Below, piece after piece: positions 26,150 to 42,747 of a stretch of 57,791 bases of DNA. The notes beneath the pieces were generated by a model. That model was not told the DNA's origin, ran no database searches, and was given only the letters and a program-made list of their open reading frames with translations. The position numbers and the translations under genes were made by a program. Within the stretch, counting starts at the first letter, position 1. Each line of letters begins with the position of its first letter. Source of the stretch: an uncultured Candidatus Saccharibacteria bacterium (GTDB taxonomy: Bacteria; Patescibacteriota; Minisyncoccia; Phycocordibacterales; SBAW01); contig CAYHDT010000005.1 in NCBI GenBank assembly GCA_964355655.1, positions 1 to 57,791 of the forward strand, read 5' to 3'.

Positions 26150-26404
26150 ATGTATGTTGTCTACATTATCGAGTGCGGAGATAGGTCCCTGTACACAGGG
26201 ATTACCAACGACCTTAAACGCCGATTTGCGCAGCATCAGCAGGGGAAGGGCGGACATTACACCGCCGCCAAAAAAGCGGTCAAAATACTTTATACTGAAA
26301 AGTGCCCCGACCGCTCAGCGGCGCTAAAACGCGAGGCCGAGATTAAGCGCTGGCCGAGGGCCAAGAAGCTTGGTTTAATAAAAGCCCTAAAGTTTAGAAG
26401 ATAG
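26150..26404 (+). CDS. GIY-YIG nuclease (UPF0213-like)
   Basis: YVVYIIEC.D.SLYTGITNDL.RR..QH...ALKRE..IK. Confidence 0.9.
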   Translation: MYVVYIIECGDRSLYTGITNDLKRRFAQHQQGKGGHYTAAKKAVKILYTEKCPDRSAALKREAEIKRWPRAKKLGLIKALKFRR

Positions 26405-28407: not shown

Positions 28408-29868
28408 GTGTACGGAATGCAGCGCGGAGAGGTAATAGTACGGTTTGAGAAGGTCTCTTTTGATTTTGGCGTCAAAAAGCCCATTCTAAGCGAGGTGGAT
28501 TTTAGCATCCGCCGGGGCACTAAGGTTACCCTCATGGGCCAAAACGGGGCCGGCAAGTCGACTATCTTCGGCCTTATTACCCGCGCCTTTGAGCCGACCG
28601 ACGGCCTGATTCATCTTTCGCACGGGCTTACTATAGCGACTTCCCGACAAGTCATCCCCTCCGGGGAGATGAAGCTCACCGTGCGGGAGTTTTTTGAAAG
28701 CGTATTCCCTAAAAAAGTTTACGCTATCGACCCTAAGATAGAAAAGGTGTTAGAGGCGGTCAATCTGCACGCGCCTCTTGATAAAGCCATCGGAACGTTT
28801 TCCGGCGGCCAGCAGGCGCGGCTGTTGCTTGCGCAGGCGCTTATACAAAATCCGGACCTCCTTCTGCTTGATGAGCCGACCAACAACCTCGATAAAGCCG
28901 GCATCGAGCATTTGACGAAGTTTTTGCAGGGATATAAAAAGACAGTCATCGTCATCTCCCACGAAGCGGAGTTTCTCAATTCGTTTACGTACGGCGTGCT
29001 CTACCTGGATGTACACACTCACAAAGTCGAACAATACGTCGGCAATTACCTCGACGTGGTCAAAGACATCACCGCGCGGATAGAAAAAGAAAACCGCAAG
29101 AACGCTCTGTTGGCCAAAGAGATACAGGAGAACAAGGATAAATCAAACTTCTTCGCCAACAAGGGCGGACAGATGCGCATGGTTGCCAAGCGTATGCGGG
29201 AGAAAGCCGCCGAGCTCGAGGAAGAAATGGTGGATGTCCGCAAGGAGGACAAGACTATCAGGTCGTTCCGTATCCCCGCCGAGCAGACGCCTCCCGGCGA
29301 CCTCATTACCATTACTTCGTTTTTGACCGTCAAAAATCATAAGCCGGTCGAGCGCAAAGCAAAGCTTGCTCTGCGGAAAAATCAGCACCTCCTGCTTAAA
29401 GGTCCTAATGGTATAGGAAAATCCACGCTCCTGCAGGCTATTGCCTCAGGCAAAGCTAAGGGTGCCAAAGTCACTGAGGGCGTGACAGTTGGCTATTATC
29501 GGCAGGACTTCTCCAACTTAGATTTCAACAAGACGGTGTATGAGGAACTCTCTGCGGTAGTGGACCGCCCGATAGAGGAAGATATCCGCAAAGTGGCGGC
29601 GGGCTTTTTAATTTCCGGCGAAATATTCCACTCGCGTATAGGCTCGCTCTCCGAAGGGCAGAAGGGGCTGGTAGCCTTTGCCCGGCTGGTGCTGCTGCGC
29701 CCAGGGCTGCTTATACTTGATGAGCCGACCAACCATATAAACTTCCGCCATTTGCCGGTCATCTCCGAGGCGCTCGACGCGTACGAGGGCGCGATGATAC
29801 TGGTCTCGCACGTGCCGGACTTTGTAAAGAAAATACGCATTGACGAAGTGCTTGATTTGGAGAAATAA
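28408..29868 (+). CDS. ABC-F family ATPase
   Basis: Two ABC domains (GQNGAGKST/FSGGQ/LDEPTN and GPNGIGKST/LSEGQ/LDEPTN), no TM segments. Confidence 0.92.
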   Translation: MYGMQRGEVIVRFEKVSFDFGVKKPILSEVDFSIRRGTKVTLMGQNGAGKSTIFGLITRAFEPTDGLIHLSHGLTIATSRQVIPSGEMKLTVREFFESVFPKKVYAIDPKIEKVLEAVNLHAPLDKAIGTFSGGQQARLLLAQALIQNPDLLLLDEPTNNLDKAGIEHLTKFLQGYKKTVIVISHEAEFLNSFTYGVLYLDVHTHKVEQYVGNYLDVVKDITARIEKENRKNALLAKEIQENKDKSNFFANKGGQMRMVAKRMREKAAELEEEMVDVRKEDKTIRSFRIPAEQTPPGDLITITSFLTVKNHKPVERKAKLALRKNQHLLLKGPNGIGKSTLLQAIASGKAKGAKVTEGVTVGYYRQDFSNLDFNKTVYEELSAVVDRPIEEDIRKVAAGFLISGEIFHSRIGSLSEGQKGLVAFARLVLLRPGLLILDEPTNHINFRHLPVISEALDAYEGAMILVSHVPDFVKKIRIDEVLDLEK

Positions 29869-36503: not shown

Positions 36504-37706
36504 ATGGAACCTTTGGCAAACAAAATACGCCCAAAGTCGCTCGATGAGTTTGTCGGGCAGGAGCACTTGGTCGGCAAGGGGAAACCCCTGAGAGAAGCGA
36601 TTGAGGGCAAGCACCTCTTCAGTTTTATTTTATGGGGGCCGCCGGGGAGCGGTAAGACGACGTTGGCGCGCCTGTATGCCAATGCGCTTAATGCCGAGTT
36701 CCACGAGCTGTCGGCGGTCGACTCCGGCAAGGAGGATATTAAGCGGATACTTGATAAAAAAGGACAAATAAAATTCGATACAAGGCCGAAAGTTTTGTTT
36801 ATCGACGAAATACACCGGTTTAACAAAGCCCAGCAGGATTTTTTGCTGCCATTCGTCGAGCGCGGCGACCTCACGCTCATCGGAGCCACGACGGAGAACC
36901 CGAGCTTCGAGGTCATCGGTGCGCTTTTGTCCAGGACACAAGTGTTTGTGCTGGGTGAGCTTACCGAAAAAGAGATGGAAAAAATAATCGAAAGAGCATA
37001 TGACACATTGAACAAAAATGCGCGCCCCGTTAGAGATAAGTCCGCTAAGCGGACTGCCGACCGTAGTCGGATCTCTAACGGGGCGCGCGAGTGGCTTATC
37101 CAAGCGGCGCAGGGTGATGCGCGGCAGGCTATCGGAGTGTTAGAGAGCGCGCAGAAGCTGTACGGCGCGATAACCCTCGAATCGCTGAAGGAGACTATCC
37201 AAAGCAAGCACCTGCGCTACGATAAAAAAGGCGAGGAGCATTACAACACCATTTCGGCCTTTATAAAATCTATGCGAGCCTCCCAGCCCGACGCGGCGCT
37301 CTACTACCTGGCGCGCATGGTTGAGAGCGGGGAAGACCCTCTTTTTATCGCCCGACGCATGGTCGTGTTTGCCAGCGAGGATATCGGGCTTGCGGTGCCG
37401 ACCGCATTGGTGGTGGCTAACGCGGTCTTTCGCGCGTGCGAAACCATCGGCTACCCGGAATGCGCAATTAATCTCGCGCATGGCGTTGCCTATTTGAGCG
37501 AATGCAAAAAGAGCCGCTCTTCGTATGATGCGTACCTTGAGGCGTTGGATGACGTTAAAACACTAGGTGCCTTGCCTATCCCGATGCGCGTGCGTAATGC
37601 TCCGACGAAGCTGATGAAAAACTTGGGCTATCACAAAGGCTACAAATTTTACGATAAGGAGTCCTATCTGCCGGACAAGCTGAAAGGAAAAAAGTATCTG
37701 AAATAA
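36504..37706 (+). CDS. rarA: replication-associated recombination protein A (RarA/MgsA)
   Basis: GPPGSGKTT, IDEIHRF, ATTENP, ISAFIKSMR, SEDIG, PKS-like KKS. Confidence 0.95.
   Translation: MEPLANKIRPKSLDEFVGQEHLVGKGKPLREAIEGKHLFSFILWGPPGSGKTTLARLYANALNAEFHELSAVDSGKEDIKRILDKKGQIKFDTRPKVLFIDEIHRFNKAQQDFLLPFVERGDLTLIGATTENPSFEVIGALLSRTQVFVLGELTEKEMEKIIERAYDTLNKNARPVRDKSAKRTADRSRISNGAREWLIQAAQGDARQAIGVLESAQKLYGAITLESLKETIQSKHLRYDKKGEEHYNTISAFIKSMRASQPDAALYYLARMVESGEDPLFIARRMVVFASEDIGLAVPTALVVANAVFRACETIGYPECAINLAHGVAYLSECKKSRSSYDAYLEALDDVKTLGALPIPMRVRNAPTKLMKNLGYHKGYKFYDKESYLPDKLKGKKYLK
37025..37083. mobile_element. MITE-like in-frame insert in rarA
   Basis: 13-bp terminal inverted repeat CCCCGTTAGAGAT; CGCG on both sides; net 63 bp. 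Confidence 0.75.
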
Positions 37707-42205: not shown

Positions 42206-42226
42206 GGTATACTATTTGGATATGAA

Positions 42227-42307
42227 TCCCGTTAGAAATCCAGCCATTTGGAACATGGGGTTCGTTATAGATAGTCGAGAGTTTTATAAACTAAATTTCT
42301 AACGGGA
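42227..42307. mobile_element. MITE-like insert at the FKBP start codon
   Basis: 13-bp terminal inverted repeat TCCCGTTAGAAAT; TGAA duplicated at 42223-26 and 42308-11. Confidence 0.75.
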
Positions 42308-42747
42308 TGAACAAGAACATCATAACGGGCATAGCCGTAACTGCCGGTTTGGCGGTGGTGGCGCTTTTCTTTGTGTACGATCCGATCGGCATATCTTCAG
42401 GTGTTGCGGCACCTGCTTCTGCGGGACTTGTCGTGCAGGATGAGGTAGTGGGTACGGGCGCGGAGGCGCAGGCAGGCAGCATAGTGAGTGTGCATTACAC
42501 AGGAAAGTTGTCCGACGGCACAGTCTTCGACACGTCGGTCGGCAAAGCTCCTATCGAATTTCCGCTCGGCACCGGATACGTCATTCCCGGCTGGGATCAA
42601 GGGATAGTGGGCATGAAAGTCGGCGGCAAGCGCCTGTTGATAGTCCCGCCGGAGCTCGGATACGGCGCGCAGGCAAACGGCCCCATCCCCGGAAACTCAA
42701 CGCTGATATTTGAAGTAGAGCTTGTAAAGGTCACTCCCGCGCAGTAA
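42307..42747 (+). CDS. FKBP-type peptidyl-prolyl isomerase
   Basis: VHYTGKL.DG..FD, VIPGWDQG, GG.R.LIVPPELGYG. Confidence 0.95.
   Translation: MNKNIITGIAVTAGLAVVALFFVYDPIGISSGVAAPASAGLVVQDEVVGTGAEAQAGSIVSVHYTGKLSDGTVFDTSVGKAPIEFPLGTGYVIPGWDQGIVGMKVGGKRLLIVPPELGYGAQANGPIPGNSTLIFEVELVKVTPAQ

Follow-up and report, generated by a model that had tools for sequence, protein, structure and literature searches.

An in-frame hairpin element in rarA of an ultra-small bacterium belongs to a start-codon-associated repeat family and is probably an old insertion

In-frame selfish DNA in genes is classic in Rickettsia. The Rickettsia palindromic elements (RPE) of these Alphaproteobacteria are repeats of ~100-150 bp that lie in frame in unrelated housekeeping genes, where they are translated and compatible with the protein fold; orthologous insertions are common to several species, and the elements have no known associated enzyme (summarised in PMC10969869). 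A second system concerns the Ssn proteins, single-domain GIY-YIG nucleases acting on single-stranded DNA (ssDNA). The ssn gene has a hairpin repeat (NTS/SRM) on either side, and many further copies of this repeat are dispersed near genes; it is the folded single strand that the enzyme binds and cleaves, and neither transposition nor in-frame insertion into genes has been reported for the repeats (Chenal et al. 2025, PMC11893778). Here we describe a hairpin element in the replication-rescue gene rarA/mgsA of an uncultured Candidatus Saccharibacteria bacterium, which carries in-frame selfish DNA into the ultra-small (Kaiserbacteria-like) bacteria of the Candidate Phyla Radiation (CPR). The element is closest in behaviour to RPE and in likely enzymology to Ssn/NTS, and it fails the defining sequence features of both. 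The window is the whole analysed stretch of 57,791 nt, contig C5 of the source genome G000 (863 kb in 24 contigs); numbers beginning with L denote loci or genes from G000 or relatives, and those beginning with P denote RarA proteins from a search of protein collections.

At a probability of roughly 0.7, we read the rarA palindrome as a family member of the miniature inverted-repeat transposable element (MITE) type that lies off the usual target of its family; it would be old, its structure maintained in some lineages and decayed in others, and its alleles exchanged or lost. The element is a member of a multi-copy family, inserted with a target duplication in the open reading frame (ORF) of a disordered loop, at a site shared across lineages. 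An earlier note, made from the letters alone, had described a 59-bp element with a terminal inverted repeat, two inner hairpins and CGCG on both sides, and the sequence, the inverted-repeat search and the fold bear this out (Table 1). The locus reads GCGCG/CCCCGTTAGAGAT-A-hairpin 1-G-hairpin 2-ATCTCTAACGGGG/CGCGCG, with slashes at the element ends. Together with the flanking GCGCG/CGCGC, the 13-nt arms form an 18-nt perfect inverted repeat (37020-37037 with 37071-37088), and the element folds into a three-way junction of -55.3 kcal/mol (z = -8.2) that none of 200 shuffles reach. With up to two mismatches the 13-mer arm matches four times in the window against 0.93 expected, a number reached in 0 of 100 shuffles. 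The note had cautioned that CGCG is self-complementary and could extend the inverted repeat, and rightly so: because GCGCGC is self-complementary, a 4-nt duplication around a 59-nt element and a 6-nt duplication around a 57-nt element are both possible readings. The 59 + 4 reading is favoured because the terminal T-A or C-G pair of the family is conserved.

Element and one CGCG give rarA a net gain of 63 nt or 21 codons, as the note had counted, and because 59 + 4 = 63 the frame is kept. The removal of these 63 nt leaves ...NKNAREWLIQ, and the joined flanks aaaaATGCGCGCGAGTGG match the sequence aaagATGCGCGCGAGTGG of the closest orthologue (L002), an exact empty site. The element is free of stop codons in four of its six readings, and in the frame of rarA its arms are translated as PVR...SNG. 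Residues 174-194 of RarA (RPVRDKSAKRTADRSRISNGA) correspond to the element plus the flanking Arg and Ala codons, the copy occupying codons 173-194. The 400-aa frame is otherwise intact, with the Walker A, Walker B, sensor-1 and sensor-2 (GDAR) motifs present, and an exact-protein look-up of this RarA found nothing on record. The insert aligns at the loop RGYGGQDIVLPDE of E. coli MgsA (3PVS), between the first lid helix and the sensor-2 helix, where the target consists of the Ala-Arg codons GCGCGC. In an AlphaFold model (mean pLDDT 82) it is a coil, with pLDDT below 50 at residues 177-187, flanked by helices 155-172 and 192-202; thus modelled, the 21 extra residues are a disordered loop of basic character at the protein surface. 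The gene is kept intact because 63 nt preserve the frame, both arms read without a stop and the added residues fall in such a loop. Translational bypass or RNA-level removal of the insert is unnecessary, the frame being open and stop-free.

The arms define a family of the form [T/C]CCCGTTAGA.../...TCTAACGGG[A/G]. In their 13-bp form, derived from 78 family elements, they read [T/C]CCCGTTAGAnnn/nnnTCTAACGGG[A/G]; positions 1, 11, 12 and 13 vary yet are 87-97% Watson-Crick paired, and pairing ends at position 14. The genome-wide arm search that the note had proposed yielded ~20 paired copies in G000 (29-113 nt) with largely unrelated interiors and without coding capacity of their own. Arms are perfect in 18 of 18 long copies, and interiors are only 70-91% alike within subfamilies. 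Inner hairpin 2 is common to the rarA element and a 59-nt copy at C15:3859-3917. The flanking direct repeats differ from copy to copy (TGAA, TGAG, TGGG, TGTA and TTGA, with CGCG in rarA; TCAA and TGAGTAA occur further in the family), are mostly 4 nt long with a range of 3-7, and are real target duplications. About 16 of the G000 copies sit exactly on start codons, where the last base of the element and the flanking TG make ATG or GTG. The rebuilt codon opens ORFs of 37-621 aa, the original ATGNN persists in front of the element, and the usual duplication of 3-7 nt starts at the TG of the host start codon. The rarA copy has the family arm motif and lacks the A/TG junction anchored on a start codon; its empty target is GATGCGCGCGAGTGG, the start-codon counterpart being ATGAA. 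The same arms, likewise placed on start codons, were found in eight of 40 relatives searched, among them members of three other families of the order.

The family can be tied to a candidate enzyme, a GIY-YIG nuclease of ~90 residues whose gene lies between such arms. Of 401 genomes of the order, 28 contain the arms at a spacing of 220-280 nt, and a reversed-pattern control matches one genome. About 20 full-length elements of 274-283 bp lie on start codons with duplications of TGAA, TGAG, TGCA or TGAGTAA. Each has one ORF only (86-95 aa), whose C-terminus FLSLTG is encoded by the right arm and whose TGA stop overlaps the rebuilt host ATG; about half of these ORFs start at the original ATG of the host gene and begin with MNPVRD. 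The product is a Pfam GIY-YIG protein (4e-14) with no other domain and arms on both sides of its gene, and its best solved relatives in a PDB comparison are UPF0213 proteins (E 1.5e-6). In G000 itself, an intact 85-aa homologue at C10:29406-29663, 47-60% identical to the arm-enclosed nucleases, is placed between the variant arms TCCTGTTGTAGAT and ATCTCACAACAGGA (29381-29678) directly before the ATG of the next gene, and on sequence grounds this gene is the foremost candidate for an enzyme that acts on the G000 copies. By analogy with the Ssn nucleases and their hairpin repeats, the GIY-YIG nuclease most likely would recognise the folded arms as a hairpin or cruciform. A second single-domain GIY-YIG gene in the window (26150-26404, plus strand, 84 aa, UPF0213-like) has no surrounding arms; at only 27-39% identity to the element nucleases it was set aside as the family's enzyme in favour of the C10 gene.

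How does the rarA locus compare with the described systems? The likeness to RPE is the in-frame, translated insertion, of which gatB offers a second case (see below), and it is a resemblance of behaviour only. Sequence homology to RPE was neither found nor expected; a permissive Rfam search with the rarA element gave no real match, only microRNA-type noise (best E 0.66). In contrast to RPE, the rarA element has 59 nt and a CPR host, and its family has 13-bp arms, start-codon targets and GIY-YIG relatives. With Ssn the family shares a single-domain GIY-YIG gene that has hairpin arms on both sides. The repeats themselves differ, NTS being CGTCATTCCCGCGMAVGCGGGAATCYRG and the family CCCGTTAGAGAT...ATCTCTAACGGG, which are alike only in a short TCCCG/CGGGA core. 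Moreover, the family arms enclose the gene as a start-codon insertion with target duplication, and the gene-less copies act as MITEs; the element nuclease has its best PDB relatives in UPF0213, and its assignment to cd10448 and cutting of ssDNA are only putative.

The Correia elements of Neisseria (100-155 bp, 26-bp repeats, TA duplication), an example of bacterial MITEs that are transcribed together with genes (PMC10969869), resemble the family in being short and multi-copy, with terminal inverted repeats, target duplication, hairpin folding and a position at gene boundaries, but we know of no start-codon rebuilding and no GIY-YIG partner in their case. The repetitive extragenic palindromic (REP) sequences and REPINs with their REP-associated tyrosine transposases (RAYT) are similar in that hairpin repeats are presumably processed single-stranded by a small nuclease-type enzyme encoded between two copies. 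The Y1 genes of G000, however, are flanked by hairpins with the core AAGTCNGACTT and not by CCCGTTAGA elements. An integron attC site was rejected because the motifs are reversed in order (GTTAGA...TCTAAC, not RYYYAAC...GTTRRRY), the copies are dispersed and targets are duplicated; an invertible promoter switch fits neither the direct duplications, which differ between copies, nor the relatives with a nuclease gene, and was rejected as well. The rarA element has the features of a MITE: terminal inverted repeats, copy-specific duplications, many small non-coding copies, longer relatives in which the same ends enclose an enzyme gene, and both occupied and empty sites among relatives. The MITE-like reading proposed from the sequence alone is thereby supported.

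The distribution of the insert among RarA genes bears on its age. The alignment suggested in the note turned out as expected only in part: none of 19 close RarA orthologues (69-88% identical) has the 21-residue segment, whereas more distant RarA genes keep it. At least 13 of the latter, found in the protein-collection search, hold the element at the same codon (an example protein reads ARPVRDKSAKRTADDRRISNGAS), and others have decayed versions or basic relic loops. The note had named orthologues that keep the segment as a refutation; these Kaiserbacteria-like genes nevertheless do not refute the MITE reading, because their copies share the arms and the fold. They do show the insertion to be no private, recent accident of G000. 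At the DNA level the site is occupied in ten genes (L096 and L193-L201), in addition to further proteins, with the same junction fold at -32 to -57 kcal/mol, and most of the ten retain the arms CCCCGTTAGAGAT and ATCTCTAACGGGG. Hairpin 1 appears as GTCCGC/GCGGAC or GAACGC/GCGTTC, the variant AGAACGC-AAA-GCGTTCT amounting to two compensatory double changes, and hairpin 2 appears as CCGAC/GTCGG, GCGAC/GTCGC or GCGGC/GCCGC. In L200 and L201 the site holds a different, 69-nt family member with compensated arms (GAAAT/ATTTC). From this distribution we infer that the insertion in rarA is old.

In nine related sequences 90% of the cells counted are paired, and four pairs of the inner hairpins have changed on both sides. 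The covariation score is 0.155 versus 0.061 in shuffles (0 of 500 reach it), and controls with slid partners give 0.05 or less. Over 36 gene pairs, identity at third codon positions is 0.80 in the element versus 0.43 gene-wide; none of 394 other 20-codon windows reaches 0.80, the maximum being 0.59. G000 and L193 are 93% identical over the element, compared with 69% over the gene. Since the hairpins are far better preserved than the surrounding gene, the element is not simply decaying junk; judged from these sequence comparisons, it is conserved at the nucleotide level beyond what coding would need.

A RarA tree, built by a quick search with the loop masked, places G000 among insert-free genes of its own genus, its backbone being nearest to L018 (89% identical). 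A sister clade of 23 RarA genes, 13 of them with the insert, excludes G000 with 99% support. Within this clade occupied and empty genes are interleaved, the insert-bearing L096 grouping with the empty L101 and L102 (97% support). Well-supported branches force at least four changes of state, and the approximately unbiased (AU) test rejects a tree in which the insert and relic genes all fall into one clade (p = 1e-4). L096 and L102 provide a second occupied-empty pair, in which a stretch of ~60 nt before the insert is the only one where nucleotide identity drops to 0.46-0.57; just after the insert it is normal. In every insert or relic allele, G000 included, the upstream sequence RTKLKVPKDA is replaced by a patch of the RAYxxLxKxA type (AAYxx or CAYxx in relics; Table 1). 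In the metagenome protein P0117 the lid loop contains both allele types in tandem, DRAYMQICEA with the relic KRSPASKRPAKQGSFGAG followed by EKIIARTKFKMPKDARDWL, and it looks like an unequal recombinant between insert-bearing and insert-free alleles.

The interleaving of occupied and empty alleles, the narrow difference between L096 and L102, the tandem hybrid and the rejection of a single clade all favour a homing-like spread, in which element and patch would be copied into empty rarA genes by homologous recombination after DNA uptake, maybe triggered by the GIY-YIG nuclease, with co-conversion upstream. GIY-YIG homing endonuclease genes of the I-TevI type are patchy at an exact site of a conserved gene, and their flanks are co-converted. 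Likewise, the rarA insert is patchy at one site, the adjacent flank travels along and the enzyme family is one known for homing. However, the rarA copy encodes no enzyme, is neither intron nor intein, and is translated; a nuclease gene is found neither in nor beside it, and cleavage of the empty site is putative. Furthermore, the flank beside the element has only ~50% DNA identity between G000 and sister-clade alleles, so that no recent co-conversion tract is visible. We therefore consider homing as the route of spread rather unlikely.

According to a different explanation, a MITE jumped recently and privately in the G000 lineage, and the other occupied rarA genes are independent hits at a site-specific hot spot (GATGCGCGCGAG). 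The duplication, arms and hairpins are indeed all perfect in G000, its 19 closest orthologues are empty, its RarA backbone is nearest to insert-free congeners, and L200 and L201 show that a different member can be found at the same site. Four observations speak against such a jump. G000 shares the RAYxxLxKxA patch with every insert allele but not with its congeners; P0018, which belongs to the group of G000 on the RarA tree (Shimodaira-Hasegawa-like approximate likelihood ratio test 90), carries a decayed relic of the same insert; the sister-clade variants all share the decayed flanks GCCCGC...GCAAGC instead of fresh duplications; and the rarA target is without the usual ATG-anchored junction. 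A private insertion is thus an unlikely account of the locus.

Could the host have co-opted the insert, so that either its fold, as RNA or DNA, or the basic loop of 21 residues that it encodes serves the expression or function of RarA under purifying selection? For this speak the nucleotide conservation of the element, which exceeds that of all other parts of the highly conserved rarA, the compensatory changes that hold both inner hairpins while the peptide shifts from KSAKRT to KNAKRS, and the decayed relics, which are retained as K/R/S/P/G-rich loops and not deleted. On the other hand, most RarA genes, close relatives included, manage without the insert, the pairing has decayed in several alleles (L199, P0008, P0010, P0011), and the AlphaFold model shows only a disordered loop. 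A search for promoter or terminator consensus sequences at the rarA element found none, for which reason a promoter or terminator role was rejected, and the lack of an Rfam match points in the same direction. We regard co-option as improbable. A chance palindrome, a lineage-specific loop expansion or an assembly artefact, without any mobile DNA, has in its favour that RarA proteins vary in length at this loop, but it is effectively refuted by arms that recur, identical, in a multi-copy family spread over an order of bacteria, by the z-score of the fold and by the recurrence of the element at this site in independently assembled data from NCBI, JGI, ENA and Logan.

We return to the preferred reading of an old family MITE. 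The fold would be kept in some lineages, G000 included, by selection on the folded DNA or RNA or, alternatively, by rounds of repair or conversion that the nuclease triggers between the conserved arms; elsewhere the insert would decay into a plain basic loop, and alleles would be exchanged or lost by recombination. Swapping of interiors is suggested by the 69-nt variant between the same flanks and by an orthologous start codon at which two species carry different interiors.

Several points weigh against this reading. The arms, hairpins and flanking GCGCGC of G000 are all perfect, as in a fresh insertion, which makes a recent re-insertion at a hot spot in G000 possible. A placement of G000 beside the insert-rich clade is not rejected (AU p = 0.10), and the tree comes from a quick search. 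The covariation derives from nine related sequences with probably only one or two events per pair, and the pairing could reflect different intact variants inserted or swapped in, instead of compensatory evolution in place. As the mover of the family elements, the GIY-YIG protein is a candidate from its sequence association. Finally, G000 has six Y1/RAYT-like genes (~225-245 aa, HUH motif LMPNHFHL), though they are flanked by different hairpins: three of the six have their own hairpins with the core AAGTCNGACTT on one or both sides. These genes and hairpins are a separate REP/RAYT-type system, and RAYT was rejected as the mobiliser because the Y1 genes carry other hairpins and none of the six adjoins a CCCGTTAGA element.

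More tentatively, and with the odds on the other side, the hairpin may not be a passive passenger at all. The three-way junction would have stayed in place over divergences that saturate synonymous sites, and the module of arms and hairpins would be either selected or actively renewed by the nuclease. Unlike a cut-or-copy transposon that inserts and then decays, the family might be a structure-specific, GIY-YIG-dependent element with fixed addresses, namely start codons and a few coding loops, where it would persist while its interior is exchanged between the conserved arms.

New at the rarA locus is the evidence that a copy inside a gene has persisted for long and is structurally constrained. 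Unlike the start-codon copies, it is a natural experiment, in which rate, pairing, and gain and loss can be measured against a well-aligned, conserved host gene, and these data make it testable whether the hairpin is kept up by selection, by conversion or by repeated site-specific insertion. They also illustrate how a mobile hairpin can turn into a permanent basic loop of an AAA+ protein.

Table 1. Positions of the rarA element, its host gene and related features (window coordinates, unless a contig is named)
Feature	Position	Strand	Evidence or remark
rarA/mgsA host gene, 400 aa	36504..37706	+	ORF; Pfam AAA, AAA_assoc_2, MgsA_C; E 8e-89 to E. coli MgsA 3PVS
Upstream patch RAYDTLNKNA	36993..37022	+	RAYxxLxKxA with insert; RTKLKVPKDA in insert-free alleles, same length
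Left CGCG target duplication	37021..37024	+	alternative: 6-nt GCGCGC at 37020-37025
Gene-less hairpin element (MITE type), 59 nt	37025..37083	+	sequence, fold, arms
Left 13-nt arm CCCCGTTAGAGAT	37025..37037	+	inverted-repeat search
Inner hairpin 1, AGTCCGC-TAA-GCGGACT	37039..37055	+	inverted-repeat search, fold
Inner hairpin 2, CCGAC-CGTA-GTCGG	37057..37070	+	seen in fold
Right 13-nt arm ATCTCTAACGGGG, perfect complement of left arm	37071..37083	+	inverted-repeat search
Right CGCG target duplication	37084..37087	+	alternative: GCGCGC at 37083-37088
Second window member, 81 nt, arms TCCCGTTAGAAAT/ATTTCTAACGGGA	42227..42307	+	on start codon of FKBP-type isomerase gene 42307-42747
Y1/RAYT-like genes	C4:52673, C2:108311, C8:33453, C7:20266, C6:12648, C8:23797		HUH motif

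The second family member of the window is a typical start-codon copy: TGAA is duplicated at 42223-42226 and 42308-42311, and the last A of the element rebuilds the ATG. A TATACT box resembling a -10 element is found at 42208-42213 and in front of several other occupied genes, 7-9 nt before the original ATG. Judged from this motif, such genes may be leaderless, which would put the elements at the 5' end of the transcript. A fixed polarity of the interiors relative to the host gene seemed real in the G000 subfamilies and was abandoned as not general, since a subfamily in other genomes is divided ~6 to 5 between the two orientations.

Two further members lie within coding sequences. In gatB (L069, C3:9592-9620, minus strand), a 29-nt in-frame mini-hairpin with family arms (CCCCGTTAGAAAGCAAGCTTCTAACGGGG) encodes PVRKQASNG; the site is a variable loop flanked by ARSQH and SLVDYNRAG, and 0 of 19 relatives have the hairpin. 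In the relative G016, a 59-nt member (L028, C2:7991-8047) is in frame in a prepilin-type leader with the duplication TTTA, and the leader reads MKNRGFT-PLEKKSNLHSKKRTTSLT-GFTLVEMM.

The start codon occupied in two species (TGATGGAGAAAATAG..., ORF of ~410-437 aa) is found at C4:28433-28535 in G000 and at L025 in the relative G024. The two elements, 103 nt and 65 nt long, share their arms but not their interiors, and they are located directly 3' of the stop codon of the upstream gene, with no duplication visible. Two adjacent mini-hairpins of 30 and 32 nt with family arms are placed 16 nt upstream of the lepA start, and not on it, at C22:233-301. A literature search found no description of an element family that combines these arms with a GIY-YIG gene. 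The pair of mini-hairpins recurs in G016 (L032).

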